DNA of 64,000 nt from Ophelia neglecta (Eukaryota), in the NCBI GenBank assembly GCA_965285935.1, contig OZ260663.1, forward strand, positions 112,778,001 through 112,842,000, read 5' to 3'. The stretch's first letter is position 1, and the number at the start of each line of letters is the position of its first letter. This document shows, piece after piece, positions 4,861 to 47,751 of this stretch. Position numbers and translations under genes: made by a program. Below the pieces are notes generated by a model that was not told the origin of the DNA, did not search any database, and worked only from the letters and a program-made list of their open reading frames with translations.

Positions 4861-5075
4861 AAAGAAAATTCTTAAACCACGAAATTCAAACACATCCATC
4901 GACAATAAAATCAATTATTAGTACTAGAGCCCAACCTCGATAATTTGTAATATTATCGCATTCATTACCAATATAAGCTCAATCAAGAGTAAATTTAACA
5001 CATAACAATGTAAAGTCACTAATTAGCGATATATTCTTTGTTAATTATACGATCCAAAACATAATCACTCGTCCA

Positions 5076-7135
5076 CTAAATGTTCTGATATTCTGCGTGG
5101 CTATCGTGGTAATATATGGCCAACTCGTGTAGATAGCCATATTGGGCCTGTGGAAAGGATAGAAATTAACTCAGCATATATGATCACTAAGTATAATTCT
5201 AGAGAGTAGAGTATTGTTAAAAGCTTGTAAGAAGGACACGATACTTCATTTAAATCATTTTACGAGCTTAAAATTATGACTTTATTTATTATTTTCGTAA
5301 ACCTTACCACTAAGTCAATGAATTGAGACCTATTACTGGCAATGCGCCGCACTGTATTAAATACATTCAGTTCGTGGTCAGCGACCATCTTTTGTATCAG
5401 ATAGGAGGCAGCACAGAACAGACCGCATCTAGTGGCGCCATCTCTATCAAAAAATGTGTAATTGAAGAGGCTATCACAATATAACATAAATATAATTTCA
5501 ATAAAAAAGGGAATGTATATCGGATATTATCAGGATCCACAAGCTGCAGAACGACAAAAAAGGTCACAGGCAGAAATGGCATTGCATTATTGGACATGAT
5601 AGATAGATAGTTTGTCTACTAACAGACACTGAACTACTGTAGTCTTATTGGAGGCCTCCAACCTCCAGGTCTCCACCCGGTCGTACAGATTGACATAGGC
5701 CGCTTTGGTCGGGAGGTCTCTTGACTGAGGCCAGTCAAACATCTCAAACTGTGTGACTATACGAGCCTTTTCTCGGGTCTATAATATATAATATAATGTA
5801 ATAATATAATATTTATTGCCAAAGGTTCACAAAGGATCAAACACAAAGGAATAAACAACTAGATAAAGTAACAAACTAATATGAACATAATAAAACAAGT
5901 CCATATGATATTGAACCCCTGACATTTGGGGCAGAAGCAGAGGTTATTGGCCCCAAATAATGACATGTAATAATTTAGTGCAGAAGGTGCAAAAAAAGGC
6001 TCATAAACAATTATATACTTAGAAAGTACAAATTAATAGTGGGAAAATAAAACATAAATAACAATGTCCCTTTTAGTACATATACAGAAATCAAGCAATC
6101 TGACTACCAGAGTTAAGAAGAAAAAAATTTACACTGTGTTTGAAAGATGGCAGAGAACAATTGAAATAAATCAAAGTATGAAATGAATTGTAAGTTAAGA
6201 CCCCTTGATATTTGACAGTTCTATGAAATTATAGTTAAAAAAAATTACATTATAGTGATTAAGATCAAACTAGATGAGGAGAAACTATTTGCAATTGTGT
6301 TGAAGTAGGATTACATTACTGTTAACTAACCTTTCTGGTGTTGAGTAGTGCGAACTCTCGCGTGGAGACATCCGTCGTGTTGTTCTCCTTGACAAGCGTT
6401 ACCTCAAACGGACCAAACGTCATGTTCGAGTTGACACTTTGTGGCCAATACACTGGGCAGGTCTATTCAATGAAATGGTACAGAACTGTGAGAGATAGTT
6501 GGGCATTACATGCAATGTCATATTATATAGTTATAGGACTTAACCGACCTCGTCCAGAATATCCTCATTTTGAAGCAGCACGATGCATCCACATTCATGG
6601 TCATATATCAGCCTCCAAAAGTCTACGATGGTGTTTGGGAGCGGCATCTGGGTCGCTATCAGACCCTTTTCCATCCTGTAAGTCTATAAAAATACACACA
6701 GATATACATGTGTTGTTATTGTGTTCAGGTTAAAAATAAGACATGTTATAATGGAGGTTAGCAGCACTGGCTGATTGTAAAGCTGTTTTAGAACTTACGT
6801 CTAAGAACACAGCGTTGATGTAGTCATTACCATCGTCAGTTCTGGTAGAGAGAAATGGTCGAGAGCCGCCTAAACAATGGATATTATGTAGTTAGCAGAG
6901 CAGCCCCTCTATATACTGTGTAGGTAAAACGTTGTGTACATAATATAGGGTGCTACATTGAAATTACTGACAAAACTGCATTTTATTAGGTCGAACGTAT
7001 TTGAGTTTCAAAACATAGCGTTAGATTCATTTTAAACATACCCGGCAGTATATCGCTGTCTCTATTCTTCGAGGGGTTTTCGTCGTTCACTGCGGACTCA
7101 TCAGGAGTACATTTACGACACATTTGTCTTAAGAC
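5076..7135 (-). CDS. PTP D2 (pseudophosphatase-type) domain exons and C-terminus
   Basis: KNRDSDILP, DYINAVF, ATQMPLPNTIVDFWRL, CPVYWP, FDWP, VVQCLDGATRCG, QYGYL...EYQNI-stop. Confidence 0.88.
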
Positions 7136-10100
7136 CTGTGGGAGAAAATAAAGCATAACAGTATGAGCTATATGAGTATGTTGAATTTGCTTTTTCCAGC
7201 AAGAAATAAAAGGAACCCCAGATGGTTCTGAGTGTGTAAAAGATCTATTTGAATAGCTGAGTGTGAAAATAGGCAAAGGCCCTTTGAAGATGAAAAAATA
7301 TAAAGGCCCTTCTGAAATAAGACAGTACATTATTTTACATATAAGGGGCCACTGACAACAGTATGAGCTATTTGAATATGTTGAATTTGCTTTCAAAATA
7401 AAGAAGGTAAATTTAACTACCGACGGTACTGAGAACGGGCTACTGACCTGGTATTGTTTCTCCAGAGCAGTTCTGCCCTTTACTTGTTTGGATGTCAGTT
7501 TTTGTAGACATCGCTCATGTTGGAATAAGGGATGAACGGGCCATCGCGGAATCGTGTTGCCTCGACAATAGCTTCGTACACAAACTTGTACTGCTCCTTC
7601 AATCCAGCGCAAATAAATGGACGTTTATTTTTATTTTGCTCATTATCCAGAAGAAAGACATTGGCGAATTTGCTCATAGCATTCAAGCGTACCGTAAGGT
7701 AAGGGAAAGTATATATTTAAAGCTATCTTGAACTGCGGTACTGGTTGGAATTGAACTATCGTTTTGCACACAATGCTAAAGTGTATTGAAATTATAATCA
7801 AATGACCCACTGGAGTTTGGATGACATGGCTCCTTTGCGACCTCATTTTCCTTAACAATGACAGCACGTCTATCTCTCCGTCTGTCGCCGCCTGCTGGAC
7901 CAACTGGTCTATCGCTATGAAAGTCCCGGTTCTTCCTACACCAGCGCTGTGGAAGGAGCAAAAACATTAAGAATTTAACTTTGTGATGAACTTCTCCATT
8001 GACCAATGCCATAACAGATTGCCGTTAAACACTGTTCAGGGTTGTATTGTCTTATTTAGTGTTATATATTGTACCTGCAGTGGACGATGAGCGGACCGCT
8101 GCTGACCATGTCGAAGGATCTGACCTTCCTCCCTGAAGGCGAGCAGAGGGTAGGTCTCGTCTGGAGCCAACTTGTCTGGCCACTTTGAAAACTGAAGGTG
8201 ATGCACGGTTCTGGTTTCTTCCTTATAACGTTTACAAAAACACAGGCAAACGGATTTAGTACAAATATATGCTACTATAGCACATACTAAAACATCGAAC
8301 ATAAATTGGACAAAAATACCTACTCCTTTGATTACCTGCATTATCCTCAAAGCATATTCAGTAAAAACGTCACAACTAACGACTCGAACAGTGAAATGTC
8401 CAAACTTTTTTTCCGCATCATGCACGTCTGACCAGTAATTGCCGCATTTTCTCTACAAATGTATTATACCAATCATCATTATTTTTGTGTTTGGATTCTT
8501 TTCCTGTAAGGTAATGTCGATGAAATGTCCTCATGGACATTAGCTTTCTATTTTTCCTCCATTTTCACCTTTATTCTGACATATTATTATACATTTTTTT
8601 GAAGCTTCTGACATAATCTTCATTTACATTACTCTCTTGGGTAAATGGAAGTTATTATATGGGAAGCTTTATGGTAGCAATATACAATTTGATTAAATAT
8701 ATCTTGCCATGGATGTACATACCACGCCGTTTTCTATTACTTTAGTGAGCATGACAATTCTGTTCGCCTTTAACTGCCACATCATTCTCCAGAAGTCAGT
8801 CAGAGTGTGAGGTGTTGGTGCTGTAGTAAAAGATTTGAAGGCGATAATGCTGAATACATATGAACTTTATTAACATACAGATATCCTACTCAAACACTTG
8901 GCAAACATCGCTAATTCCGTGTAAAGCTTGCAATGAATGTATTGTTTCTTATTTTAGTTGTAGTTGTATCAGTGTTATGGAAGTTATAAGTTGGTAATAG
9001 GCATATAGTTAAATACAAAACCAATGAATTTAATCTTACCTTGAGTGGCTACATATGCTTTATCTGTGTTCCCAGCACCCTGGAATTAAGGGTTGCCGAG
9101 AGTAATACAAGGGAAAAGTTGTAGAACTATCACTGAACTAGTAAAGAAATATCAATCAGGAAGTTTTGTTCGGTTATAAAACAATACTAGATGGGTTACT
9201 GTGAGGAAGTTAGCGTTGATGTAGTCCGTCGTGGATACTGTGGAATCATCTTCAACATCCAATACAACTCTGGTCTTGTCGTCTGGAAGTAAGATGTTAA
9301 TTATGTTGAACATCACCCCATTTCGTCTCAAGCCTTCATTACGGAGAGCTTTCAAACTTTAAATCGACACTCCTTACATGATTTGATATTCTTGAATCTA
9401 TCCTTGTCTTTATTTTCAGCTTTTACTGCTGCTAAACACGGGAAGGGATATTCTACGAGGACGGACTGAAATATAACGACAGTTAGAAAACACGTACTGC
9501 TATCTTATCTAATAGAAAGCTGGATGACAATAATATTTATGATATTACCTCAAATTCCAATTGGAAAAAGTCCATCTTAGACTTTTCCACTACAAATGAT
9601 CTAAGGTCTTTAATCTTTATGGCAGTTGATTTAAATCTAACGACCCCAAAGTTCTGATACATCCGGTCAGATTCCTCATTATCGCCTTGATCTGCTACCT
9701 CAAGCCCAATGTCTCCCAGGTCGTCTTCCTCGGAGTCTTCTGCGGCGTCCGGATTGTCTACATTATCAAAAACGCTCGATTTTGATGAGACAATATTCCC
9801 AACATATAGAATAAACCTATTCATCGTTTATACTTAACATATTCTCACAAAAGACGTGTGTATTTACTACCACCTTACCGTCTGCCGGTCCTACCCGTTC
9901 TTCTCCCGAGCTAGATCGGTTTTTCTTTTCTTTTCGCTTAGAACTGCGTCTGTTGGAAAACATTCACTGATTCTGTTGTAAAGTTATTCTAAGTTGATCA
10001 ATTCATAAAATGACATGCCAGTATTGACAATGAAAAACGTGCACGTTGAGTGCCACTTTATTGAAGGTAACTTCAAAAGCACACGAAGTGTGTATAAAAC

Positions 10101-13100
10101 TTATTGTTGATGATTGTATTACCTAAGAGTTATTAGGACGGCTGCAGTTATCCCGACACCGAGGAGGACAGTAAAGGCGACAGACGGTCCGGCGATGACT
10201 CCGACGTTCATACCTGGAGACGAGGTCGCTTTGACAGTGGAAGAGGAAGTCACTTCTGATATACTCCCTGACGGCCGTGCTGACGTCATTGCTGATGTCA
10301 ATTCTGACGTCATAGTTTATCAAAAGTTTGTTAACACAGAAATGTAGGAATTGAAAGTAGAAGATTACAATAAGAGGGCAGTTCTACTGTCATAATTCAA
10401 ACATGGTAGTGGTTTAAGGCAAACGATTATGTGTAATTCGATTCATGTTTACCTTGTAATGTTGTAACGTTGACCTCAGGGTATTTTCCACTCCCTTCGT
10501 ACACAGTGCCGTCTGTATACACCCTGTACACAGACAAGCCAAACTGGTATCTGGTCCAAGGCTCCAGTCCTACCACTAACACCTGCTGCTCGTCTGTTTT
10601 CCGGTGTGTAACGTTCTGTTCTCGGCTCCACTGGCTGTCATTGACCTTTCTGTAGACTTGGTAGCCAATATACGGAGCCACGTTATCTGAGATGGAGTCT
10701 GAGTAATGCCATTCTAGTATAACCGTGGTCGAGCTGGCTGCTGTTCCCGTCAGTCTAGTAATGGCTGTGTTTAGAACTTTGTCTGAAAGAGGAAGTGAAC
10801 AGGTTTGTATATTACGATTTAGACAAATCACGGCGTTGTAGCCCCTCAAAATGGCTACAAAAATGTCCGGTATTTCTGTGATTTCATGTGGTTAAGAAAG
10901 CCCCTTTTAAGTATGTGCAATTACTCGCTTGTTGCTATTGCACTATGACGCGTACCATCGAAGATAATGAATTTGAGTAAATAGAGATTGGCAATACAAA
11001 AAAAAAGTAACTACAACCTGGGTCCAAATATTACCAAACGAAGACTATCAACTACCCACATAGTCTTTACACGGTGAGGTCAAGTTATATAACGTTGTTC
11101 CTCCTAACTTACTTATTTGGATGTCACACCTGTCTCCCAGCCACCACACGTCTTTCTCGACATCAGTGATGTTTTTACATCCGTCGGTACAGACCCCAGA
11201 CACTCTATTACAAGGCGGGTCATTGTCCGGTTTACAGTGGTCACTACATCTGGCCTCACAACTCTTCCCATACCAACCAGATATGCAAGCTATAACATAT
11301 TTAATAATTTGATGTTATTGACCATATTAATTATTTCAATGTTTTAAAAGTCGTAAGGCGCAATGCCAAATTTCTGCGCCATTAACTATTGGAGATTTAA
11401 TATATAAGAGACCCACATCTTGTACAGTTCGGTAGTCTGGTTCCATTAGGACAACTATTGCAGCCATCGTAGTCGTCGCAGGTGGCCGGGGAAGGACAAT
11501 GGCTGCAATCTGATAAACATACATGAAAATATAATCATTTGGCGGGGGAAGGTTGGGAGTTGGTTATGGCTTGGTGAACCCGATCACGGGTCATTTTTAA
11601 AGTAAAGGCAGGCACTAAATGACTATTATTTAAAATATGGGTTGTCACTCAATACATGAATGAAAAAAAATTCGAATCCCAATAAATTAAAGTAGTAAAT
11701 CCGACTTCACATGAAATCGTACCCTTCGCAGCAAGACTAATTCTTATCGCATAGCTTCTCCGCATCACGCATGCTACAGGCGAAGAGAACGTAGCTGTGT
11801 ACTCTACTACGAAGGGAAATGAAATCGTAAATGTCATAATAAATCATGTCTTAATTTCAATATAGGAACAAGTTCATTCTAGGGTCACGGGAATAGTCTT
11901 AATGTCTCATCCTTAGGGTTTAAAACGTGCCCGATTCCAACGCCTCCACCCCTCCACCTTCTACAGAAAATATTGCCTCCCCTTTTCTCGAAGACAACGT
12001 GGGGATATCCGTTAGGCCTAGAGGGTAATGAGGCAAACCAACCACTCAGCCTACTACGCACTTTTTGTTTGGATGCAACTGGCCAAAAAATTGGATACAC
12101 ACACTATGTAACCGTTAATGATGTGCTTGCAACTAACATTGTTTTTGGATACTTTTTTACCAACCTACTACCATTGGTACTACAGTGACGAAATTTTCAC
12201 AACTATACTCGTGAGCGGGATGGAGCAAAAAGTAGTATAGGTACTGTCAAAAAGTAATATAGGTACTGGCAATTTTTTCCTTCGAGGGATGAAGCGCCTA
12301 TATTTGACTTTGACCTGATTATCTCTAATAAGTAATGAAAATATGTATTTGCATGGAATAATTAGGCATTAATGAAGTCTTGAATTAAAAGGTTGGTTTC
12401 AAATGTCGATAACACTGTTCCAAACCCCAAACCTTGTACTAAGATAAATCTAGGTCGCATTTCTATTACTCACCGACATATGATCTCCCAGTAACTACGA
12501 ACTCACAGATAACCAAGTAGCGAATGTTTTCTGACATTCTCTCGCTAACAAGGGCGACATATCTACCAGTCATAGTAGTTGTACAGTTGAGAGTGAGATT
12601 CCCTCCTCTGGTCACTGGGTCCTTGTGCCGTACACATACCCTACCATTTTTGATATCGGTTGTGTTACCGACAGTTATCCGGAATTTAGACATCCTATCT
12701 ACAAATGTAATGATATTGCATTAAGGTCCCGATTCATGGTCAACATGATTAACCATTTAAAACAATTAAAATGTTGAAATGTATACACATACAAGACACA
12801 TGGTGATCCACATTAAACAAGGTTACACTGTAGATCACGTGGGCAGTTCCCAGGTCGACATACCACCAGGCGGCACTGGGGTCACTGGAAGTTAAGTTAC
12901 CGGCCTGAGCACAATGATATTGGTTTGGGTCAGGATTTATGTCACCATCGACGGCCAAACCAGCTGTTGCTAGCCTGTTCTCCTCATACAGCCAAGCCCC
13001 TTTCTGGTGAGCATGCTGGCGGTAGGCGACGTTACCTGGAATAGTGATACCACAAGTGAGATGTGAAGAGAACCTTTAATGTTAATCACACTCCATACAT

Positions 13101-14531
13101 ACCTGCTTAGTGAGGGCGTAACGTTTCATCAATGTATCGATTAATAGAATCGGGTGGCTTCCAGCTATTCATATGAATAGGAAGATACATTCCCGCTAGT
13201 TTTTAATTAATTCAGATTATCTTTATTTTTCAAACAGAGATCTCTTGTTTCAATAGCTGAAAGCATCATCGCTTGATGCATATCAGCCAATCAATAATGG
13301 TATCAATGTGTTTGTTAAATATGTCAGCCCGTCAATCCCACTTCTTTTTGAACAAATTTCTGTGCGAAATATAAGCCAGTATATATAAAGTCACAGACGA
13401 GTAAACGGCTTGTAAATGTTATATGATGGAGTTTGTTGTCTACCCCAGTTCGGCCATTGATCACGAGAAATTTCATCGGAAATTTGACAAATCCCGTAAA
13501 CCACACAATTCAAGTTTGCGCAATTCCCTTTACCGTAACAGCCCTACTATTTACTAATTTGTAATTACATGTATTATCAACACTGTATAAATACACAGCT
13601 TCACGATCAATAGACTAACATCACAATCTCTTACCAATCCGACATCCATGTCCATGCCATCTGTGTTCTTTGCCACGTGGTTCGCCATCTAAACAAGAAC
13701 CGTTATTAAGACAAGTCCCGTTATCAGAGTCACAGCCATCGGTACATCTACAGGGGAACGACGCGCCCTGGGTGACGTCACCATAACGATCTACAGCTAG
13801 GACAAAAAAAAATATCACGGTATTATAGAACAGCTTGCTGTAGACCTTTACTTTCTTCTCACTTTGTGTTGTTTGAGATAAAACCGTCTATAATCTCACA
13901 ATTAATATGAATAGGTTAAACCTAGACTAGCGAGAGCAGGACATTTTCCTAAATTATTCATGTACCTATCAGAATGACACCCTACATGTAGAAGTACATG
14001 TACGACAAAGTTTTCAGACCATATTGATAGCTAGCATGAAACAATCTTCCAAGTTACCCCATTTTGGAGAAAAATGTCCCCTTGTTAATTGACTCTAGGC
14101 ACACAATATCTATGTTCATAAATTTAGGGAGCGACAATTAAATGATGAGGGGAGGGGGCAGGATTTTTGAAAAAAAAACACCCGGCACAGGTTAAAAAAA
14201 AATTCTGGATCCATATATGATGGACCCGGTTAAGGGTCATACAGAAAAAAATTCTTGGTCCTCCCGACTTAGAAAAAAAATTCTGCCACAGACAAAAATC
14301 CCCCCTCCCCTTGATCACTCTCTTATCAACTTGTACCCAAACAAAACATACCTGCTCAGTTGCAGAAAAAGACACAAACCAAAATGAGGTAAAATGTGGT
14401 AAAACATGAATATTTTTTTTTCTCAACTGTTTTTTTCCCAGTAACCTCTATATTATTCATATATAATTATTATAGCCATAACAAGCAGTCCACTGTAGGT
14501 CATGTGCTCATCTTGTCAACTGTATCTTATG

Positions 14532-20710: not shown

Positions 20711-20980
20711 GGTAACCATCAACGCCCCCCCCCCCCCCCCTACTTCCCTCTCGTGCGCATGTCAGGTCAGCCCCGACAAATTAGTATATATAAATATATA
20801 TCGTACCTGGCTAATATATATTGGTTGAGCACGTTAGGATGTACTGATCACAGAAACTTAGGTTGACATTTTGTCAAAGTGTCTGAATTTTCAAAGTCGC
20901 GAATTCAAAACCATGATCTAGAGGGAGAAACCGGGGGATACTATTTACATTGTTTTAACCAGGAGCTAGAGGAAAACCAA

Positions 20981-21228
20981 TGTTCCGGCGAAAGTTTAAC
21001 ACTATACAAGAAATGTCACGACTAATTTTACTTCTATATTTCTAAGTTTATTTCCTGCTCATAATCATCCATGGCAAACAAAACAAGTACCAAACTCAAC
21101 CTGAAGGCCTTGACCTTCATTTACATTCAATAACAATTTGCAGCGCACCTAGTGGTCACTGACTAAACTTAAAGCTAACAGTGTCCTACTACTTATACTA
21201 AGCAATTTAACCAAAAGTCTGCACAACA
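20981..21228 (-). repeat. 3' LTR of the BEL/Pao element
   Basis: Direct repeat of 27418-27665. Confidence 0.95.
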
Positions 21229-21480
21229 TCCTCCCCTTTCTGATATGAAATATCAACTAAATTTAACTAAAAGTTCATAATACTTATGCATGTCCGCATA
21301 GCTTCTAATGGTAATAAGATATTCCAAATCGAACTGGCTGTGTATCCAATTGAACTTTACGATATAAATTATATGTTTTACTGAATGATTTTTTCGAAAA
21401 AGCGTCATATTGATTATCCTGTGAGCAGATTCTCGTAAATCTTAGATGAAATTATTAACTAAATTTCATGTATCTGCTTG

Positions 21481-23091
21481 TTACTGATCGCGGCCTTGTT
21501 CCAATGGGCATAGCTTTGCTATGGGACGACGAAGAATAGTTTGTCCAACCTTGATATCAGCTGTTCGGACATGGCCGTCACGACCTGGGAAAGTCCTGAT
21601 TACTCTACCCAGGGGCCATTTGCCTCTAGGGGTGTCCGGTATAAGGACTAGTACTACTTCCCCTACATGAATGTCATCACGCGTTTGGCTCCATTTTTTA
21701 CGTGTGTTCAGTCCAGGAAGCCATTCACGTAGCCATCTGTTCCAAAATTGTCGCTTTAGTTCCTGAATGCGTCGCCATCGCTTCCGGGGACTGAAGTCAG
21801 TGCTGTCAACTGACTCGGGAGCAAATTCTCCTCCTATTTGCCCATGGAGGAAATGGTTGGGCGTCAATGGTACGTAGTCATCACAGTTCGCACTTTGGTA
21901 AATGAGAGGCCGAGAATTGATTAAGCCTTCAGCACATACAATGGCAGTCAACAGTTCCTCATCTGTTACATCAGCATCTCCGAGGATAGCTTTTATTGCC
22001 CGCTTAGCTGCTTTGATCATTATTTCGTGAGCACCATTAAAGTGTGGTGCTCCAGGGGGGTTGAAATGCCACTGCACTCCGCGATTGGCTGTTGATTCCT
22101 GTATCTTATTTTGATCAAGTGCAGCGACAAGTTCACGTAACTCTCTGTCCGCCCCTATGAAGTTAGTTCCATTATCCGAGACCATGTCCCTCGGTAGGCC
22201 TCTACGGGAAACCATGCGGAAAAAGGAATTCAAAAACGAATCCGTGTCTAAGCGGTAGGCTAGTTCCAGATCAACTGCTCTGGTTTGCAAACATGTAAAT
22301 AGACATAAATATCTCTTTTCACGGATTCTTCCTCGGCGTTGCTTTGTAATAAACGGACCAGCGAAATCGACTGCATTTTGAGTGAATGCCCGAAGCGACA
22401 TACGCGTTCGAAGTTCTTCAAGTGGTGCCATCACTCGGCTGGCAGGAGATGCTTTCCTCAACTTACATCTCATACACTTTCTCTCCCATCCTCTTATTGC
22501 CTCTCTAGCAGAGACAATCCAAAAGCACCTGGAGAGGTGTGAAAGCACCTGATTTGTCCCACCATGCTGACACTGTTCATGTGCCTCCTTAACGATCAAT
22601 GTGGTGACGTGGTGTCGACGTGGCAAAATAACTGGGTATCTTGTTTCCCACGACAAGCATTCGGCGAAGCACAATCGACCATCACATCGTAGAATGCCCT
22701 CCTCATCCAACATTGGTTTCAGAGGTCTGAGCTGTGAGTTGCTGGGTAACTGCTGACCGGCTCGCAATTTACGAATGTCTTCTCCAAATTGCTCTTGCTG
22801 AGCTATTTTGATGAAGTGTCTTTGAGAATCAGCAAGCTCTGCTGGCTGAATTGGCCCTGTTCTACGCAGTGGCTCTGGCAAGCGACAATTGTCTACAAAT
22901 CTCATCACTCTGGCCATCAACCTGGTCAATTTGACCCAGTTAGAGAAACGTGAGGGGTCTAGTCTGTCACACATGGCTGGTTCTGTAGATGTTACAAGAG
23001 CAACATCTTTGTCTGGTGCTCCTGTACTTACAGTACAATAGAGCTCTCTGTACTGTTTTCTGAGTTCTTTGTCCTGGTTTGATTTGGTCAA
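21481..23091 (-). CDS. BEL/Pao integrase fragment
   Basis: HHCC zinc finger (H..HGG...C..C), VDFAGP, SDNGTNF, C-terminal DUF5641-like WPLGRV. Confidence 0.92.
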   Translation of the reverse strand: MTKSNQDKELRKQYRELYCTVSTGAPDKDVALVTSTEPAMCDRLDPSRFSNWVKLTRLMARVMRFVDNCRLPEPLRRTGPIQPAELADSQRHFIKIAQQEQFGEDIRKLRAGQQLPSNSQLRPLKPMLDEEGILRCDGRLCFAECLSWETRYPVILPRRHHVTTLIVKEAHEQCQHGGTNQVLSHLSRCFWIVSAREAIRGWERKCMRCKLRKASPASRVMAPLEELRTRMSLRAFTQNAVDFAGPFITKQRRGRIREKRYLCLFTCLQTRAVDLELAYRLDTDSFLNSFFRMVSRRGLPRDMVSDNGTNFIGADRELRELVAALDQNKIQESTANRGVQWHFNPPGAPHFNGAHEIMIKAAKRAIKAILGDADVTDEELLTAIVCAEGLINSRPLIYQSANCDDYVPLTPNHFLHGQIGGEFAPESVDSTDFSPRKRWRRIQELKRQFWNRWLREWLPGLNTRKKWSQTRDDIHVGEVVLVLIPDTPRGKWPLGRVIRTFPGRDGHVRTADIKVGQTILRRPIAKLCPLEQGRDQ

Positions 23092-23184
23092 TATAGGAGT
23101 TTCTGGCCAGCCTGCAGTATCTGAATGCAGAAATTTAGGACCGTTCCACCATCTATCCTCGTCTATAAGGCTAGATACTGAGAG

Positions 23185-25068
23185 TCAACGAGTAAGCATA
23201 TCTGCCGGATTCTCATCTGTTGGCACGTACCTCCACTGAGAGGGTTCAGTAGACGCTTGAATGTCACCAACACGATTAGCTACGAACGGCTTAAATTTGC
23301 GACTGTTTCCCCTGATCCAATAAAGGACGTCCATGCTATCTGACCAAAATTGACAGTCAGTTTTCGAAATGTTCAGAGCATTTGCTACAGGTTCCAACAT
23401 TCTGAGTCCTACGATAGCTGCCATAAGTTCAAGTCTAGGTATGCTCACGGCATTCAGAGGTGCAACCCGTGACTTTGCACTGACTAACCTACAAGTGACT
23501 GTCCCATCCGTATATTGGTGTCTGGTATATGCAGCTCCTCCATAAGCCATCTCTGATGCATCTACGAAAAAATGGAGAGCTACATTGTCCAGTTTTTTCC
23601 TGATTTTGAGACAGCGAGGAATAGTGATATGTGCCAAGTCCTCCAATTCGCTGAACCATTTTTGTGCTCTTTTCACCAGTTCTACATCAGGAGTTTCATC
23701 CCAGGCCAAACCAGCAGCCCACATATCCTGCAGTAGTTTCCTTGCCTGGACAGTGAATGGGACTAGGAAACCCAATGGATCGAATAAAGTGGCTATCTTA
23801 TTCAGGAAGCTTCGCTTTGTAATTTCATATTCACTGTCCGGGGGATTAACAGAGAAATGGAATGTGTCGCTCTCTGGAATCCAAAGCACACCCAATGTTT
23901 TTATGCATGGCACTGGATCTTTGTCCAAATTTACAGCACTAATGCAATCTGCAGATGGTATCCACTTCCGAGCATGCATACCTGCGGATGCCCACAAGCC
24001 TGATAACTGCTTGTAGAGTTCAATAGCCGTGTCCTCATCAGCTACAGAGTCGAGGCTATCGTCCATGTAGGTTCCCTGCAAGACGGTCTCTGCTGCAAGT
24101 GGATATTCTGCCTGATGCTGTCTGGCATGAAACTGAGATATGAATTGTGCCATAAACGGAGATGAACCCATGCCGAATACTACTCTCGTAAATTCGTAGA
24201 CATCTGGTGGCTTACTTTGATCTAAGTCCCGCCATAAAAATCTATGAAATGGCCGGTCTTCGTATTTCAAACGTATTTGTAGGTACATTTCAGCCACGTC
24301 GCTTGTTAGAGCAATGGATTCTCGACGGAATCGTAGGAGAACAGCTACTAGATCATTCTGCAGTTTCGGTCCTTCATTGACAACATCATTGACTGATATA
24401 CCATCACATTTGGCGGCCGCATCGAATACTATGCGCACCTTGGTCGTACTCTTGTCAGGCCGTAATACAGGAAAATGTGGCAGATACCAAAGTTCATTGG
24501 GTTCCTGTTCCTGTGGCGCCACCTGTCGAATGTACCCCTTGTCTAGGTAACCTTGCAATACATTTCGGTATGCCTGACTTAGTTCTGGATTTCTGAGCAA
24601 TCTTTTTTCTGTATTGCTCAGTCTTTGCAATGCCACTTCGTAATTGTTTGGCAATGCAGGCCTGTCCTTCTTCCATGGTATACCAACACTGTAATGTCCA
24701 TCATTGTACTGTAAAGTTTCTGTAACAATTTCATTGGCATGTTTTTCATCTGGCTTTATCAATCTCCCAATGGTTTGTGGCTCTTCAATGTCCCAAAATT
24801 TACGAACAAGCTGATCGAGTTCCATAGTATCATTCTGAAAGAATGTAAAGTTAGTGTGAGGTTGTCCAGAACTGCCCTGCATATTGCCAATGCAAGTCCA
24901 TCCTAATGGCGTCAGTCTGGCAATTGGTTCTCCAGATTCACCTTTAATTTCACGCAGAGAACAATGCAGATCAATCTGGTCTATCCCGATTAGAATGTCT
25001 ACTATTGGCCGGTGTCCTGCCTGCGGAAATTTGATGCCAGCTTCCATCTGTCTTGCTGCTGTTTCCAA
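23185..25068 (-). CDS. BEL/Pao reverse transcriptase and RNase H fragment
   Basis: YLPHFPV, RIVFDAA, YMDD, FVDAS, IPRLEL, WSDS, NPAD motifs. Confidence 0.92.
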   Translation of the reverse strand: METAARQMEAGIKFPQAGHRPIVDILIGIDQIDLHCSLREIKGESGEPIARLTPLGWTCIGNMQGSSGQPHTNFTFFQNDTMELDQLVRKFWDIEEPQTIGRLIKPDEKHANEIVTETLQYNDGHYSVGIPWKKDRPALPNNYEVALQRLSNTEKRLLRNPELSQAYRNVLQGYLDKGYIRQVAPQEQEPNELWYLPHFPVLRPDKSTTKVRIVFDAAAKCDGISVNDVVNEGPKLQNDLVAVLLRFRRESIALTSDVAEMYLQIRLKYEDRPFHRFLWRDLDQSKPPDVYEFTRVVFGMGSSPFMAQFISQFHARQHQAEYPLAAETVLQGTYMDDSLDSVADEDTAIELYKQLSGLWASAGMHARKWIPSADCISAVNLDKDPVPCIKTLGVLWIPESDTFHFSVNPPDSEYEITKRSFLNKIATLFDPLGFLVPFTVQARKLLQDMWAAGLAWDETPDVELVKRAQKWFSELEDLAHITIPRCLKIRKKLDNVALHFFVDASEMAYGGAAYTRHQYTDGTVTCRLVSAKSRVAPLNAVSIPRLELMAAIVGLRMLEPVANALNISKTDCQFWSDSMDVLYWIRGNSRKFKPFVANRVGDIQASTEPSQWRYVPTDENPADMLTR

Positions 25069-25145
25069 TTTACAACCTGCATGTTGCCTGTGACACGCTT
25101 TGTGGAATAAGCAGTGATCGGCTTAACAACTTTGCCATCTATGCT

Positions 25146-27319
25146 CTAGATCCGAAAGTCAACTGCTTCACTTTCTATTTTGGCGGTGTTTTTGTTCAGA
25201 ACATTTACGGTTAAGTCCTGTGGTCTTCCCACAAGGCCTAGCTGAGCCACAACATCTTCATTTATAAATGTTCTGGTGCTAGCATCGTCAAGTAACGCAT
25301 TCACTACCACATTCCCATTGCCACTGACTAGGCGTACTGCTACTGTTCGTAAAGCAATAAACTCTGAACCACTCGAACTGAGAGTAGTAGTATGAGTATG
25401 ATCTACTGAATCTGCTTGCTTTTCCCTGGGAGGTTCCCCACCATGTGTTTGAGGAGTTGGTGAATTCTCGGCGACTGGCTCCAATGTTTTCCCTGTTATT
25501 GGGGTTTCAGGTGCTTTTTCCGTTCTCTTGGCATGCAAAAGTCTATTGTGATTGGACTTGCAGCCATCAATCCCACATGTGCGACTTCTTTGGCATTGAT
25601 CACCACGGTGTGAGTTGGACAAACAACGGAAACAAAGCTTGAGCAATTTTGCTTTTTCCCAACGCTGATCGTTGTTCAAGTTTTTGAATTCTTCACAAGC
25701 CCAAACTGCATGTTTTGCATGGCATATAACACAGTTTCTGTTGTATGTTTTATTTTCTGATCGTACTGGCTGTGTCAAAAATGTTCTTGCTGATTGGCCT
25801 TTTTTCGAACTGTCTTTTAAAATGCCCTTGACGGTTTCTACGGCAGTGCTGAGAAATTCTGATTCTTGGTTCACAAATGCTCTTAAAGTTTCGACAGTTT
25901 CTGGAAAATTGTGCTCGAAAATCCAGCGATTGTATTTAGACAGAAGGTTTTCATTCAATTTTCTCTGCAATGAAACATACAGAGCTCCCCCTCCGAGCTC
26001 GCCTTCCTGACCAACTTCATACATATTGACTACCAATACGTCAAGGAGTTCTGCGAATTTTTCTAAGTCCTGGGCACTATTTTCCCTAATTTGTTTGAAA
26101 TTGTCCAATTCCTCTAACCTGAGCACCATCTGTCGCCTTTTACCAACATACTTTCTCTCAAGACGGTATGTGGCAATATTGTAGGCAGCTGCCGAATGTC
26201 CTAAACTTTCAACAACTTTCAAAGCCTCTCCCTCCAGTGAGTCCCGTAAACGTAAAAGTTTGTATTCTGGTGGTACACTGGTTCTGTCCACACATGCAAT
26301 GAATGCAGCTTTTCATGCCTCATAATTCTTCTTTTCTCCTTTGAATTTTGGGATAGGCACTCGTGTGAGTAGTCTCATTGAGTCAAATTGGTGTGACTGC
26401 GGCGGAAGCGAAGGGTTACAGCTTGGCTGTGCGTAAAACAAAGATCCATGTTGTTGTGGTGACATAACGGATGGTTGTGGCGGAAATCCACTCTCCTGTG
26501 GTGGAGTAATCTGGGCTAGATATGCCGGTGTAACTGGCTGCTGAGGGGTAAACGGCTGTCTATCTGGTATCGAAGATATTTGAGCGGATTCATATGGGTA
26601 GGGCGTAGATGCGACAGCATGAAGGAATGACGGTGCAGGTCTAGTGGCAGCATGGTAAAAGGTGGACGGATTTGACGTAACGTACCTCTGAGGGGCCGGA
26701 GATCGGGACGAATATGACGAATATACCCCTGGGGTACCGAAAATTCCACCATTCCCTGCCATAGTACCTGGCTTGTCATCCTGATTATCAGCATCAGCAT
26801 CTGCCAGTTTGACATTAGTATTATCATGATTTGTAGTTTCTGGTCTTGTGTCATCTTCAGATTTAATTTGTGTGGATGACTTCATCTTGAGACTAGAAAT
26901 TGTCTCCTCTAAATCTTTAGACAGTTTATTGATTTTGGCTTCTGTTTTTGTAATTTCATTTTCAAGGCTGGGGGCTTTAGGACCTCTCAAATGTGTCTCT
27001 GAACCTCATTTTCAGCTTTTGAAAAGGCTTCTTCAATGGCTGATATCTCCACTTCCAGGGCGGCCATTTTGTCAACTTCACTATACACAGAATACATTTG
27101 ACCTAGTTCCTCAAAAGCCAGTATCACATCCTGTAAGACAGCTGACAACTGACCAAAAATTGCCCTGATTTGTGATTTTGTTGACAAGCCATCATCTAAT
27201 GAAGTGTATAATGTGTTCTTTACCTTCTCAAAGGCAGCCTTTGCTTTCAGTTTCCTTGTTCTGAGTCCTAAAGAAGCCATTTTCCTGATGGAAATTTCCA
27301 CAGTTAAAGCAGCCTCCAC
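25146..27319 (-). pseudogene. BEL/Pao gag and protease region (three broken ORFs)
   Basis: DUF1759-like IPKFKG...LRDSLEGEA, three Cys/His knuckles (CVICHAKH..C, CFRCLSNSH..C, CGIDGCKSNH), protease ALLDDAS. Confidence 0.88.
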
Positions 27320-27417
27320 ACAATGTAGATAGAAAATACTTGATCACAAAGTTCCTCCAAATTCCCCCACAAAATCCATGAAACACAACAATAACCATGT
27401 TGCTCTGCTACCAGCAA

Positions 27418-27665
27418 TGTTCCGGCGAAAGTTTAACACTATACAAGAAACGTCACGACTAATTTTACTTCTATATTTCTAAGTTTATTTCCTGCTCATA
27501 ATCATCCATGGCAAACAAAACAAGTACCAAACTCAACCTGAAGGCCTTGACCTTCATTTACATTCAATAACAATTTGCAGCGCACCTAGTGGTCACTGAC
27601 TGAACTTAAAGCTAACAGTGTCTTACTACTTATACTAAGCAATTTAACCAAAAGTCTGCACAACA
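27418..27665 (-). repeat. 5' LTR of the BEL/Pao element
   Basis: Direct repeat of 20981-21228; adjacent PBS. Confidence 0.95.
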
Positions 27666-28809
27666 ACCAATCTACATTATTTTAGCTGGAAACTAGTAAT
27701 TAATTCAGCTCCTTAAATATAGTGCTAACCCTTGTTCGTCTTTCAATTGAAAAGGGTGATTATTATAATCAAGAGCTCATAAAGGTATTGCACAACCCCC
27801 CCTCCCCCCCCCTTAGGCTAAACCTAAATCATGGACATAATTCTTAGTGTATATCCCATTTGAATCACTAGTCGAAGTTAACACAAATCTAAACTGTACC
27901 TTGAAATTGTACCCTGCTTATTATATATTTCATAGACTCAGTTCGTGATTTGGGTTTTCAATGTTTGATAATATCAATGTATGAATAGTATTTCTTGTCA
28001 AATGGGGACAAAGAGTCGTGAATGCGTAACTGCCAACCACTATTCCTACCATCGCAAGCGTTTGTTTGTAAGTATTGTAATACACAGTTGTATCAGGGTA
28101 AACACCATCGACGTGGTGTCTGCAGTCTGTGGACTCTGGATAAACAGGTCCATTGATACCAGTCACCAGTCACAGACGACACACACACAAAGTTACACAA
28201 TCTTAACAATCTTCATTATTCAGTTTAATTTATCAATCAATGTATATAAACATATAGATTTTCAAGACTGACTGTACTATTAATGAAAAAAAAAACAGAA
28301 ATAAAGTTCAAACATATCCCGCACGACTCTCTACTTTTGTATGAAATCCTTGATGAGTGCTTTATAACAATGTATTATTGTTCATGTTAATTAAATTAAT
28401 TGCCAGATGTACAAGGGCGTCTTTGTAAGTATGCAATGATCGCGCTATGTAAGGGTGTATAACTTATATATTTGATGTTTGTCATAACTGATTAATTCAA
28501 ATATATAACATCAAGATTACCTGCATTTTACAACATCCAGAATTAAGACGGCCCAGGCTTTTACAAACCAACCTAAGAAATCCAAACTCAAGAACACAGC
28601 CATATAAAATGCCACCATTACAAACCTGTGGAAGTTATTGCTGACTGTATATTCTGATATTACCCGAGGCCATATTGGTTCAAGAATAATTTTTAAAGTC
28701 GTTTTTAACACGGCCATGGCCAGGTGTGTGCTGTAAGCAGACATACAGTGCGAGTCCTTGATAGGGGAACATGTGGAGTATGAAGTCTATATATATTTGT
28801 CTGCGAGTT

Positions 28810-34549: not shown

Positions 34550-37500
34550 TATCAACGTCAAGTACCCTGCTTGGTAGCAGTACCTATTGTAGTCGGTAAA
34601 ATGTGACGGATGACGCGTTGATTGTCTAGTTGATTTTTATCTCGTGAATAGCTTGTTGTTGACGACAGCTATGCCTCCGACTTCTTTACCCACGTCTTGG
34701 ATAACATATGTATTGCGAGGCGGCAATTAAGTAACACCACTTTTATGATTATATATCACTGTTTTCATTCGGTTAACACGGATCCAGATAATCTGAGAAA
34801 TACCTAACCTTTCGCTTTTGATGACGTCCGCTTTTCGACTTTGATCTGATACATGTATTTATTCTGTATTTATAAGTTCAACTAATTATCATATTGTTTT
34901 GTAAATAATTGTATTAATGATGTTTATTTTTTAACTGTACACTTTGTTATTGGAATTAGCAACTCCATGAAAAGGAGAAAATAAAAAATTTATACATATA
35001 TATTTGTAGTAAAATCAATCATGGTACAAGCTTAGAACAATTTTTTATGGCGTCTATTAAAATCTATAATACTAAATACGATAAATGGGAAATTGATCGC
35101 GGAACTATATAAAGACGCATGATTCTAACAATTCAATGTTAATTGTCATTGTCTATGAACAATGTATACATGAAAATATAAAACAAACAAGCAATAGGTA
35201 AAATTAGTGAGAAAGTCCTAATAAATGTGAAGAGTGTTTCGATGCACGAGTAGAAAAATAAACTCGTAACATTAACTATCTATCCATATAATGAAAGCCG
35301 AAAACTATTAACGCATAGAAAATTACCTATTAGTTCGTGGACATACATATATTATTTATCATCAAAGGCATCTGGGGTAAATACATGTAGGTGTAAAATA
35401 GATGCTTTTTAGCCCAATAACAAATCAGCTTGTTATTTTTACAATGCAGGCGTGATGATCAAAGTGCATGAATATAGGCCCAGTTTATAATATTTTAGTT
35501 ATGACCGAAAATAAGCACCTACATACTAACTGATTAAACTAGCATTAAGCTTCTACGTCAATAAAAGATTTTTCCCACAGAAAAGAGTTAGTAAAGTTTT
35601 AAAACAACTCTTCAAGATAGATAATTTATAACAGTAAGGGCGATAGTACCATTGACTGCTATTACGCGGCAGTCTGTTATGATACAAATGTCAAATATGT
35701 GAAAGTTTGTTTTTTGAATTGGGTCTTTATCCGTTGTTACCCCCCAATGTTTTCATAATCGTCTGGTCCCGTGGACTGCAGATACGGCGTGGGTCGTGGA
35801 GGACAGAGGTCCATTGGTAGATTCAGTTCACCTGAAACACAAATCTTGAATAATGGCAGGTTGGGACTGATAGCCCCGAATTGTTTGCTTTACAAATAAA
35901 AACACTTATTTAGATTATACGCGAGTGGATTTTAATTACAGTGCATTAACTAGAATGAAGAGCGTAAAAATATAATACTATATTCAGCGCCAGTAGTGGG
36001 TCCATGGTTTACTGAGGAGCGGCCGAGATCTAATGTCTCATACGATGTCTGAACGGTTTGTTGGCCGGTTGCCTCCATTCCAGTTGTCGGCTTCAAATCA
36101 TTTCTCTTGTTCCTTAAATTGAATAATTTTGATATTAAAAACTATACTTACCATAAAACGATATTGACGTGTACAATTTTTCTGTTAGTTTGTGGAACAT
36201 CTCTTCCTTATCAATATAACTGATAAAACCAGGACAATGGCGAGTGTGATAGCGTTTGCTCCAGCCAGTCCCGCTATCAACCCGGTGTTTAAGGCACTGC
36301 CTTGGCAAACACCAGATTGCCCAGGTCCCTCGAATGGCGATGTCGTCATCGTAGTTGAAGGAGGCGAGGTTTTAGAAGATGGCTTTGGAGCTACAGGAAA
36401 ATACATGTTGAATTCAGGATACAAAGTCTTTTCTAAGTAAAGGTTCTTATATGGAAATCACTAACGCTGCCTAGCGGCGTTTAACTGGGTGAAGTAGGAG
36501 ACAGAATTATAGTATAGGACAGAACTAGTTGGGAGAGGTTACTTGGGCCTGACTCTGAAGCAGAGAGAGAGTAGCGAGGAGCCAATGGACGATGGGGATT
36601 AAGACTAGATAACACGCTTCTTTTAACCTGTTATCACGTTGGTTGACCTCAGGGTATTTTCCACTCCTCTCGTACACCGTGCCGTCTGTATACACCCTGT
36701 ACACAGACAAGCCAAACTGGTACCTAATCTCAGGCTCCAGTCCTACCACTAACACCTGCAGTTGGTCTGACCTATGGTGTGTAACGTTCTGTTCTCGGCT
36801 CCACTGGCTGCCATTTCCCTTTCTGTAGACTTGGTAGCCAATAAACGGAGCCGCGTTATCTGAGATGGAGTCTGAGTAATTCCATTCTAGTATAACCGTG
36901 GTCGAGCTGGCAGCTGTTCCCGTCAGTCTAGTAATGGCTGTGTTTAACACGTGGCCTGAAGGATGAAGTGGGTATGATTGTAGTTTACAATTTACTTAAA
37001 TCACGGCGTTGTGGCCGCTGGAAATGGGTAAACCGATGTAAAGCCGATTTTTGTGAGTTTACGTGGCTAAGAAAGCATTTTTAAAGTATGTGTTATAACT
37101 CAAGGATTGCTGGGTCACTATGACGCGTACCATTCAAGATAATAATATTGAGTAATTAGACATTGGCAATATACCCAAGTAACGACAGCCTAGTCGAAAT
37201 ACTGCCATACAAAGACTACTAGCTACTCACATCGTCGTTACACGGTGAGGTCAGGTTATATAACCTTGTCTTCTTACTTACCTATTTTGATGTCACACCT
37301 GTGTCCAAGCCACCACACGTCGTTGTCAATATTAATGACTTCTTTACATCCGTCGGTACAGACTCCAGACACTTTATTACAAGGCCGGTCACTGTCCGGT
37401 TTACAGTGGTCAGTGCATCTGGCCTCACAACTGTTTCCATACCAACCAGATATACAAGCTATAACAAATTTACTAATATGATGTCATTGAACATATTATT

Positions 37501-39084
37501 AATATAAATGTTTTTAACACTTGTAAGGTGCAATGCCAAATTTCTGCGCCATTAACTATTGGAGATTTGATAAAAGAAAGACCCACATCTTGTACAGTTC
37601 GGTAGTCTGGTTCCATTAGGACAACTACTGCAGCCATCTTAGTCGTCGCAGGTGGCCGGGGGAGGACAATGGCTGCAATCTGATATACATACGTGAAAAC
37701 ACATTTATTCGGCCGCGGAATGTTGGGGGTTAGGTATGGCCTGTTGAACCCGGCCACGGGTCAATTTTAACGTAAAGTTTGCAGCCAAAACGATATTATT
37801 TAAAATATGGGTTGTCACTCAATAATGAACGACCGAATTATATAATCACAATCAAATAAAGTAGTAATTCCCACTTCACATGACAACGTAACAGTTATAA
37901 TAAATCAAGTCTTTTAGGACCGATGAAAAGTCTTAAAGTCTGATCCTTAGGGTTGAAAACGTGTCCAATTCCAACGGCTTCACCCTCCACTATCTACAGA
38001 AAGTATCACCTCCCCTTTTCTCGAAGCCAACTTGGGCGGATATCCATTAGGCCTAGAGAGCAATGAGCAAGCCAACCACTCAGCCTACTACGCCGAGCAC
38101 TTTTGGTTTGGATGCAACAACCAAACACTTGTATCCACACACTGTTTAGTCGTTAATCATGTGATTGGAACTGGCTATGTTTGTGGGATACTATTTAACG
38201 AACCTACAGCCATAAGTACTGGAGTGACGAAATGTTCATAAATGTACCTGTAAGCGCGATGTAGCATAAATAGTACAAATAAAACGCCAAAATTGACAGT
38301 GATGAATGAAGCGCCCATATTAATCCCTCTATTGTGAAATCTGCAAAATATGTAATTAGATGGCTACAGGGATGAAAAATGACTGCCGGGAAAGTGGTGG
38401 TGGGGGGAGGGGGGTTGGTTTGGTCGTCTGTGTGTGTTAAAAGTTTACGGTCGTTGTATTTCTTTTACTAATTATCGTGTAAGGAAATCATAAGGCATTT
38501 AAATACTGGTCTCAAAAGTCGATAGATCTGTTCTAAACCCCAACCTTGTACACACATATTTCAAAATAATGAAGCCTAGGTCGCATTTCTATCAATCACC
38601 GACATATGATCTCCCAGTAACTACGAACTCACAGATTGTCACGTAGCGAATGTCTTCTGACGGAGACGTTCTCTCGCTAACATAGGCGACATATCTACCA
38701 GTCATTATAGTTGTACAATTGAGAGTGAGATGCCCTCACCTTGTCACTGGGCCCTGGTGCCGTACACATTCCATACCATTTCTGATATCGGTTGTGTTAC
38801 CGACAGTTATCCGGAATTCAGACATCCTAACTACAAATGTAATGATATTGCATTAAGATCCCAATTCATGGCCAACATGATTAACCATTTAAAAAATTAA
38901 AATGTTTAAATATATACACATACCATACACATCGTGATCCACATTAAACAAGGTTACACTATAGATCACGTGGTCAGTTCCCAGGTCGACATACCACCAG
39001 GCGGCACTGGGGTCACTGGAGGATTGGTTACCGGTATAAGCACAATGATATTGAAATTGGTCAGGGTTTGTGTCACCGTCGACA
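34550..39084. repeat. Segmental duplication of about 48425-52360
   Basis: Colinear exons, introns and about 1.1 kb of 3' flank. Confidence 0.85.
35737..39084 (-). pseudogene. Receptor paralog 2 (F-lectin, Cys-rich, FN3, TM, short Tyr-motif tail), 5'-truncated
   Basis: Exons 38924-39084 (cut by a LINE), 38600-38830 (TGA at 38736-38738), 37587-37679, 37282-37458, 36628-36955 (frameshift), 36207-36390 (donor GT>GA), 35979-36112, 35737-35831. Confidence 0.85.
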
Positions 39085-39568
39085 ACAACACCTTAAATTT
39101 TTATAAAGTTTACAAGCCCAATTTTTTGACCATTTAATAGAAGGTCATTAACAGACAGTGTCCCAGATCTTTTATTTCTGAAGACCATAAAATTTGTTTT
39201 CGAGACATTTAGTGTAAGTTTATTTGAATGGAACCAGGAGATTAGCTTTGGCATTTCGGTATTGAATAAATTAATCAAGTTATTCACAGAGCGGCCTGTA
39301 ATCAGAAAGTTGGAATCATCGGCAAATAAGCGTGTAAAAAGAGTTTGAGATACGTTTGCCATATCATTAATGTATAGTAGAAAGAGAAGTGGCCCCAGGA
39401 TCAATCCCTGAGGAACACCACATGAGATTGGGGAGTACTGAGAATAGGTATTTTCAAAATCAACAAATTGGCTTTGATTTGTCAGATAAGAATTCAGCCA
39501 ATCAAAGGCAATGCCCCGCACTCCACAACACTCAAGTTTAGACAGGAGGATACCGTGGTTCACTGTGT
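39085..39568 (-). mobile_element. CR1-like LINE RT fragment interrupting paralog 2
   Basis: NHGILLSKL, GVPQGLILGPLLFLLYIND, LFADD. Confidence 0.88.
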
Positions 39569-41111: not shown

Positions 41112-42292
41112 ACATTTGCTTAGACTGGCACTTTTTCCACAGATAAAACCAGTTAGCTTAAATAAGGGTAGTTTTTTATTTGGGGAAAGGGCAACGCCGT
41201 AGGATAGAACAAACACAAGTTGATGATGATAATTTATTATTTGGAGCCATTCAAATCACGATCATATACATCAGGAGGAACCCTTTCCTCATCAATAACA
41301 ATATGACATAGTTGGTTTACTCATTATATTGGAAATTGTCAGTACAACAGTAAAACTAGCCATATAATGGAATATCAAAAGTTTCTAGTTACTAATGGTT
41401 AAACCAATAATCAATAATAATTGAAGTAGTAATAACCTAAAATTGGCACCCAAAGTTGGCTATATAGCCATACCACTATTGAAATCTACATGATTTCTCA
41501 ATACAAGGATTTTTAGAAGTTAGAACGAGGCATATACATAGAAATGCAATCCCTGATATTATGACAGAACTTTACGGTCAATATGGACAGTAGAGCATAA
41601 ATTTGACAAGAATGGAGCGCATATAATGTAATTGAACATACGCAGACAGTAATAACTTTCACATACTAGAAATTTAATAATCTGTCCAAGATTTATAATA
41701 AGAGGGTGACTCATTTACTCAGTCAACAAAATGTGCATTTATCCTTCTAGTAGTTAATAAGATGTTTAAATAACATTGAAAGTCAAATTTAAGGGTTATG
41801 GGAGGGTTTTGGGTGAGAGCGTAGCAGTGCGGCTTATCGCTTGGTATGGCGTTGAAAGGACTGAAATGGTCAGCTGACGTCCTATATATAGGTGTCTGGT
41901 GACCAAGAACAATGCCAGACTTATTCGGTTCTTGGAGAAGTCGTTCCAATTGCCATCACGCAAACCTAGTTTTTCACATGTTACAAAACTTACATTTGCT
42001 TAGACTGGCACTTTTTCCACAGATAAAACCAGTTAGCTTAAATAAGGGTAGTTTTTTATTTGGGGAAAGGGCAACGCCGTAGGATAGAACAAACACAAGT
42101 TGATGATGATAATTTATTATTTGGAGCCATTCAAATCACGATCATATACATTAGGAGGAACCCTTTCCTCATCAATAACAATATGACATAGTTGGTTTAC
42201 TCATTATATTGGAAATTGTCAGTACAACAGTAAAACTAGCCAAAATCGGGAGACTGATGATGACCCCAAAAGGCGGTGCCCACAACCAGGAA

Positions 42293-44757: not shown

Positions 44758-44770
44758 TATGTCTAGCTTA

Positions 44771-46063: not shown

Positions 46064-46412
46064 GGTTATATAATAATGAAATGGATTTTTGTTACGGAAA
46101 GTAATTTGTTCATTGACGTTGGAAAGTGACTAATGGTTGAATAAACACCTTAAGTATCCAGTGATATTTAAACAGTACACGTATGACAGGGAAAAAGAAC
46201 ACACGGCATTTTAAATATATTCTCTTTAGTATTCCCTGCACGTTTGGTACAGATATTCAGTCTGCATATGTCAAAAGGAGAAGAAAAAAAATAATTGTGT
46301 ATGATTACTTATCACATTATTAACAGAGGAATTGATTCTTGTTTTATATTTGAGAAACTAGAGTAATAACGTATAAAAGGTACCTGTGTCAAGACATTGG
46401 AAAATTTTACAG

Positions 46413-46778
46413 AACCCAGACATGTCCGTCTGGAAGATAAGTACCCAGGCATGTACAAGTCTGTCACTGGGAAAACTGATAAAAACCCAGGCATGTATAA
46501 GTCTGTCACTGGGAAAAATTCAAAACCCAGGCATGTACAAGTCTGTCACTGGGAAAAATTTTCAAAACCCAGGCATGTATAAGTCTGTCACTGGGAAAAA
46601 TTTAGAACCCAGGCATGTATAAGTCTGTCACTGGGAAAAAAAATTCAGAACCCAGGCAGGTATAAGTCTGTTACTGGGGAGAAAAAAAGAAAAAAAAAAT
46701 TTTGAACCCAGGCATGTATAAGTCTGTCACTGGGAAAAAAAAATTCAGAACCCAGGCATGTATAAGTCTGTCACTGGG
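46413..46778. repeat. Array of 8 (plus 1 degenerate) 28-bp hairpin units CCCAGGCATGTATAAGTCTGTCACTGGG with A-rich linkers
   Basis: Cores start at 46444, 46486, 46526, 46568, 46608, 46651, 46707 and 46751; CCCAG/CTGGG ends are complementary. Confidence 0.9.
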
Positions 46779-47661: not shown

Positions 47662-47751
47662 GGTATACCTGAAGAATAATAATGAACTTACGATGAGAGC
47701 GTAGCAGTGCGGCTTTTCGCTTGGTATGGCGTTGAAAGGACTGAAATGGTC

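Follow-up and report, generated by a model that had tools for sequence, protein, structure and literature searches.

One copy of a tandemly duplicated receptor-phosphatase gene in the assembled genome of Ophelia neglecta carries two single-nucleotide indels that cancel each other, and between them 96 codons holding the catalytic motifs of the first phosphatase domain (D1) are read in another frame, with the gene remaining open to its normal stop. We put the chance that both indels are real, recent and unselected slippage events in a redundant copy at about one in two. This reading, which was absent from the initial annotation of the locus, appears slightly likelier than assembly error. Most of the surprise of the open frame disappears, as the same shifted frame is stop-free in several unshifted paralogues.

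The gene occupies the minus strand of the window, by which we mean the whole stretch of 64,000 nucleotides that was analysed. Twenty-four exons were modelled from 13796 to 5075, giving 1,110 codons with a single terminal stop and the domain order Cys-rich, F5/8C-like, Cys-rich, FN3, transmembrane, D1 and D2 (Table 1). The FN3 domain (10782-10453) matched PF00041 with an E-value of 1.7e-7; the F5/8 type C (galactose-binding-like) domain (13035-12474) matched PF22633 at 2e-5, short of the cut-off, and the second Cys-rich part, labelled by eye, we take to be EGF-like. Extracellular domains, one transmembrane stretch and an in-frame D2 are all present, as in tandem-domain receptor protein tyrosine phosphatases, with which the gene shares an FN3 domain, a transmembrane stretch, the D1 motifs (in the displaced frame) and a degenerate-loop D2; it differs from them in its lectin-like F5/8C and Cys-rich ectodomain, its KDRF loop and its membership of a 38-copy sub-family. 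A conserved first-exon candidate with the start and signal peptide was sought among the copies and none was found; the description of the protein as full-length in the initial annotation thus holds from the exon at 13796 to the stop, the start/signal-peptide exon not having been located. A protein search with the FN3 exon gave no match among 110 candidates, and identity to the nearest proteins in the database is 50-58% for the P-loop exon. The phosphotyrosine-recognition loop (exon 9465-9378 and its paralogues) reads KDRF, not the usual KNRY, in 33 of 39 rows and KDRFQ in 3 more, and given this loop the activity or specificity may be altered even in intact copies.

Table 1. Features of the focal receptor-phosphatase copy, in window positions.
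Feature	Position	Strand	Evidence
GGG with extra G, first frameshift	8131..8133	-	Comparison with 37 paralogues; unique 21-mer
A5, cancelling second frameshift	7499..7503	-	Comparison with paralogues; unique 21-mer
D1 exon, 147 nt: WPD loop before the shift, VHC of the P-loop after it	8075..8221	-	PF00102 over residues 2-34 only
D1 exon, 136 nt: AGVGRTG...QTP in displaced frame; entirely recoded in open frame	7811..7946	-	PF00102
D1 end and linker exon, 149 nt: EQY in displaced frame; frame regained near the 3' third	7448..7596	-	
Private intronic indels: +T at 8006, +TA at 7796-7795	7795..8012	-	Paralogue comparison
Two further private small intronic indels: 9122, 8973	8973..9122	-	Paralogue comparison
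Ectodomain exons: Cys-rich, F5/8 type C, Cys-rich (presumably EGF-like), FN3	10453..13796	-	
Stalk and predicted transmembrane exon (10291-10123), two juxtamembrane exons	9549..10291	-	Hydrophobic stretch in sequence
D1 first half, five exons, open: 9465-9378, 9282-9200, 9079-9040, 8820-8723, 8452-8336	8336..9465	-	
D2 pseudophosphatase (QCLDGATRCG), seven exons, open to stop: 7135-7042, 6869-6799, 6683-6549, 6462-6331, 5778-5624, 5443-5308, 5147-5075	5075..7135	-	

Both indels had been proposed in the initial annotation, and comparison with the paralogues agrees with it at each site. At the first, the assembly has GGG where the paralogues have GG, and 37 of 37 have one G fewer; the exon that holds this site is 146 nt long in all 37 paralogues having it. 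At the second, one base is missing from a run that is most commonly A6 in the paralogues; the exon is 150 nt in 36 of 38 loci and 147 and 155 nt in the remaining two, the focal length of 149 nt being absent from every fetched paralogue. The 21-mers bearing the indels are each unique in the 762-Mb genome. Neither indel occurs in any of the other 37 copies, and no single-indel intermediate was found among them. The recoding of about 96 codons over three exons was likewise confirmed: together the exons make up 432 nt, stop-free, with standard AG and GT splice ends, and the open frame departs from the phosphatase frame after the GGG and rejoins it at the A5 run, as claimed, before D2, whose exons are open to the normal stop. 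As the initial annotation stated, the P-loop HCSAGVGRTG and the Q-loop QTPEQY lie in the displaced segment; that frame would terminate at a TGA at 7497-7495. As assembled, therefore, both loops are found only in the displaced frame and are absent from the open one, which retains the WPD loop of D1. In the displaced frame the middle exon (7946-7811) matches PF00102 with an E-value of 9.5e-12; in the shifted frame it has no Pfam family match at curated cut-offs. The intron at 7447-7136 is distinctive for the focal copy.

The focal gene belongs to a set of 38 copies inside 2.2 Mb of one chromosome (110.58-112.79 Mb, G000:C5), whose middle exons are 93-100% identical, and the copy in the window is the last of this array. 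The copies lie in both orientations and show mosaic exchange with one another; one block of the focal copy (about 7900-7100) is held in common with another located 2 Mb away. More distant matches number at least 112 at 50-61% identity (150 scored of 322 candidates), and at least 150 phosphatase exons of related type are present genome-wide. The same contig has additional clusters near 95-107 Mb and near 5-13 Mb. We compared 10 kb around each of the 38 cluster loci, together with one distant gene. The exon set was incomplete inside the 10 kb fetched at 7 of the 38 loci and fully recovered at 31; the frame test was run without L058 and L059, in which exons were missing, the D1 alignment without L029, L033, L038, L058 and L059, and the D2 alignment without L027, L047 and L059. 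All 37 paralogues having the exons retain an intact P-loop. The complete set of 18 exons that begins with the transmembrane exon was recovered at 31 loci; of these, 26 are open and stops or frameshifts interrupt the other 5, in three cases through single nonsense substitutions. Uncompensated frameshifts were observed in L045 (G000:C5:110693600-110703599; +5, in the same third exon), in L057 (110761100-110771099; -1, in an A7 run) and in L028 (112705600-112715599; -4, in the transmembrane exon). These data suggest an array of birth-and-death type that is highly redundant. With its ectodomain of F5/8C, Cys-rich repeats and FN3 it is possibly a diversifying recognition-receptor family, and the receptor-phosphatase expansion is itself perhaps of greater interest than the frameshift pair; a search on such an expansion gave no match in the literature collection covered.

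How surprising is a shifted frame that stays open across this segment? The initial annotation had estimated about 1% for a stop-free stretch. That figure is of the right size as a prior for the family ancestor (0.75%, using the segment's own codon use) and is the wrong null for the focal copy, in that 10 of 37 unshifted paralogues, the nearest one included, already lack stops when the corresponding 97 codons are read in the shifted frame. In the other 27 the shifted frame is interrupted at six sites, with at most three stops per paralogue; in the normal frame all 37 read through these exons without a stop. Because the frame is already open in these 10 paralogues, a second random 1-bp indel restores it with a chance of 6-9%, whichever indel came first, the stretch in which it can do so being about 360-400 nt. 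Two unconditioned random indels left an open frame in 3.2% of trials and a span of at least 90 codons in 0.27%, and a run of at least 97 codons somewhere in exons 6-23 was obtained in 5-20% of codon shuffles. Judged by these comparisons, the naive 1% surprise mostly disappears for the focal copy. Latent open frames inherited in a young array make such pairs far likelier than a naive stop-codon model predicts.

We favor the following sequence of events for the focal copy. Either single shift alone leads to an early stop with many exon junctions downstream, and transcript decay would be expected. The first slip would have disabled the copy at little cost, and would have been tolerated because intact copies are plentiful, about 26 or more remaining. 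The second would have fallen within the restoring stretch and regained the frame, and since the shifted frame there was already stop-free in the sub-family, a full open frame would have been left. Any protein made from this copy would lack D1 activity, and its D1 would probably be misfolded; it would be a null or near-null receptor, not a folded decoy. Consistent with this proposal are the private nature of both indels, the pre-open frame, the frequency of copy loss (5 of 31 paralogues broken, and two related genes in the window with in-frame stops) and the accuracy of the assembly here otherwise, and the large number of phosphatase exons genome-wide raises the chance of finding one such pair. 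In the same direction, the focal copy has 18 non-synonymous and 5 synonymous private changes in exons 6-23, a ratio of about 1.0 versus 0.52 in other copies. Several results fit less well. The difference in this ratio is not significant (p 0.26), and intact copies have similar counts. The recoded stretch contains none of these 23 private exonic substitutions (P 0.03-0.08), so that neither frame can be scored there, and their absence is better explained by very recent events or errors than by long decay; the indel events look, from this distribution, either very recent or artefactual. Six private indels of 1-2 bp in 1.6 kb, the rarity of so long a two-indel span and public contigs that lack the extra G (and other private bases as well) also count against the slips.

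A variant of the same reading would have both indels arise in one error-prone conversion. Error-prone synthesis during gene conversion yields 1-bp indels in short runs (PMC12891019), and the mosaic array and the block shared with a distant copy are in keeping with it; the yeast data favor -1 over +1 (PMC12891019), whereas the four clustered indels of the focal copy include three insertions. The shared block does not clearly extend over the extra G. The idea that both indels came from one recent conversion tract was rejected: the mosaic block does not match both sites, and its private divergence is ordinary.

The strongest competitor is assembly error at one or both sites, within a short stretch that was poorly corrected, in which case the gene would be an ordinary receptor with an active D1; we regard this as a serious possibility, somewhat short of an even chance. 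In a variant, the missing A alone would be real, giving a receptor that ends just past D1. Both sites are run-length changes, the usual residual class of long-read error (PMC12212083). In favor of real events, the same study reports that some 78% of the genes with frameshifts in unpolished HiFi human assemblies proved genuine (PMC12212083); the technology of the O. neglecta assembly may differ. The focal copy has a local excess of private 1-2-bp indels: 6 versus 18 substitutions in the D1 span (1.6 kb), compared with 33 versus 525 in 34 other copies (p 0.003, or 0.045 minus the two coding indels). Four of them lie within 640 bp, and the maximum is three in any of 70 other copy-regions. The displaced frame moreover fits the family at all catalytic motifs, with zero private substitutions, and the 24 exons are otherwise unbroken. 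However, the excess is confined: D2, 2 kb downstream, has 0 private indels versus 27 substitutions, and the 7.4 kb upstream have 3, so that a bad stretch must be shorter than 2 kb. Nearly all paralogues show the A6/A7 runs and the GG without anomaly, a step from GG to GGG affects a very short run, and near-identical duplicates are resolved in the assembly. Paralogue exons totalling 76.5 kb contain a single further homopolymer frameshift, which lies in a copy with other lesions. In addition, two neighboring intronic indels adjoin private substitutions, the +T at 8006 sitting in a cluster of five private or rare changes within 33 bp (8012-7980), and they look more like complex mutations than consensus errors. 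The error branch of the initial annotation keeps a probability somewhat short of even.

Public contigs were also compared with the two sites. The extra G at 8131 is absent from all overlying contigs (5, 4 and 5 in three runs of one sample), as expected of an error. But the same contigs also lack the private substitutions of the focal copy at 8360, 8187, 8010, 7996 and 7644, and contain 0.32-0.37 of the 31-mers of the window, compared with 0.36 common to at least five paralogues. The contigs represent the family majority and not the focal copy, and since they cannot see its private bases the absence of the extra G from them does not decide. At the A run, the extra base is present in 323 of 485, 180 of 295 and 417 of 836 depth units; the remaining units may derive from those paralogues, about 10 of 37, whose run contains other letters, and the remainder is consequently no evidence for A5.

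A selected, catalytically dead receptor, whose ectodomain and D2 would compete for the ligand or partners of its active paralogues, is improbable. The frame is open through D2 as far as the normal stop, the P-loop and the Q-loop are both lost, a span of this length is rare for two random indels, and PTPRU provides a precedent as a decoy receptor with a dead D1 (PMC7320164). The change is nonetheless found in 1 of 38 copies and has not spread despite block duplication and exchange in the array. The 96 new residues share 3 identities with the displaced ones (BLOSUM sum -67); the new peptide has a GRAVY of -1.18 versus -0.17, 20 Arg+Lys, and 19 versus 30 hydrophobic residues. The recoded residues correspond to the core of D1 in the PTP fold. 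With that core replaced by a hydrophilic, basic peptide, retention of the fold is unlikely, and a folded decoy is accordingly improbable on sequence grounds. A CX5R motif in the new peptide is a chance occurrence, lacking the Gly-rich P-loop. The focal copy has 8 private changes at otherwise invariant columns in the D2 and juxtamembrane part together with D1, so constraint is not visibly tightened; the 5' start exon, as noted, was not located; and the paralogue and substitution comparisons gave no sign of selection on the new peptide. The paired private indels and the loss of the D1 motifs stand from the decoy branch of the initial annotation, and a functional decoy is unsupported. Equally doubtful is the stronger version in which a real and expressed pair of about 290 nt would yield, by way of the sub-family's latent open frame, a 96-residue basic peptide and a dominant-negative receptor with a dead D1.

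The comparison with PTPRU points the same way. PTPRU has evolutionarily conserved point changes and a folded, crystallized D1 that still binds substrates (PMC7320164). Like PTPRU, the focal gene has two inactive phosphatase domains and active paralogues alongside; unlike it, 96 core residues are replaced in a single copy (PMC7320164). Neither point changes in motifs within a fold that the sequence suggests is kept, nor an inactivation conserved among copies (1 of 38), were found here. The pair does correspond to a compensatory frameshift pair (pCFM) by sequence definition, with a 1-bp insertion, a 1-bp deletion and no stop between. Biba and colleagues describe six high-confidence pairs spanning 7-99 nt and a low-confidence class of 624 genes, nearly all seen in one genome, for which errors are the main problem (PMC8935012). 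The focal pair resembles these in its single-base insertion and deletion on one terminal branch, its dissimilar replacement peptide and its weakly constrained gene, and differs in covering about 290 nt over three exons and in hitting the most conserved part of the protein (PMC8935012). Its length is three times that of the longest high-confidence pair, although longer low-confidence cases may be published (PMC8935012); being known from one genome and one copy, it belongs to the low-confidence class. A search for papers on both compensatory frameshifts and protein tyrosine phosphatases gave no match in the literature collection covered. Known pairs are short and lie in weakly conserved regions, unlike this one, and if real and expressed it would have converted an enzyme to a pseudoenzyme at a single stroke, with the change running over three exons and through the most conserved part. 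It also serves as a warning, in that annotation tools would score the focal copy as intact with an odd D1.

The inherited open run is somewhat long, and for this reason we also tested whether the shifted frame is a kept second reading frame. It is open for 474 nt in the focal copy and for 162 codons in the unshifted copy L021, and an inherited run of 160 codons had a P of 0.0003-0.005 in synonymous shuffles. Over exons 8452-7042 the stop-free shifted run is 158-162 codons in these two copies, longer than codon shuffles yield. A simulation with family-wide codon usage (P 0.0007) was dropped as a null, these exons being poor in T-ending codons (0.12). In exons 8221-7811 a stop-making T occurs at 1 of 17 at-risk columns versus 12 of 36 others (p 0.04, post hoc), a deficit much of which the scarcity of T-ending codons explains. 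Synonymous variation shows no drop, 20 of 40 fourfold columns varying in the stretch versus 154 of 267 elsewhere (p 0.39). Of 21 distant phosphatase genes, just 2 have the shifted frame open over the equivalent exon, and the shifted exons have no family match at curated cut-offs. That the sub-family maintains a constrained second frame, normally reached otherwise and switched on permanently in the focal copy, is thus highly improbable given these results and the interruption of 27 of 37 paralogues, and the sequence comparisons indicate that the shifted frame is not a kept one.

Other elements were observed in the window. Paralogues of part of the ectodomain lie on the minus strand at 34606-39110 and 48551-53403; one of them has a transmembrane stretch of its own, predicted near 36457-36188, and no phosphatase exons were seen after either. 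Three exons of these two paralogues contain in-frame stops, and the copy at 39.1 kb is interrupted by a reverse-transcriptase fragment (39617-39096). In other parts of the array, phosphatase genes and similar ectodomain blocks follow one another in turn, a layout like that of paired receptors. A Pao-type LTR retrotransposon at about 20976-27668, with terminal repeats of 254 bp that are 98.4% identical and an interrupted coding region, lies upstream of the first modelled exon and is absent at this place in 10 paralogous contexts. An element at 42296-47835, which we take to be DIRS-like, has reverse-transcriptase, tyrosine-recombinase-like and GDSL-like frames and near-identical split repeats (41112-42242 and 47694-47875). 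Finally, a tandem array with a unit of roughly 63-64 bp, about 95% identical, occupies 62280-64000.
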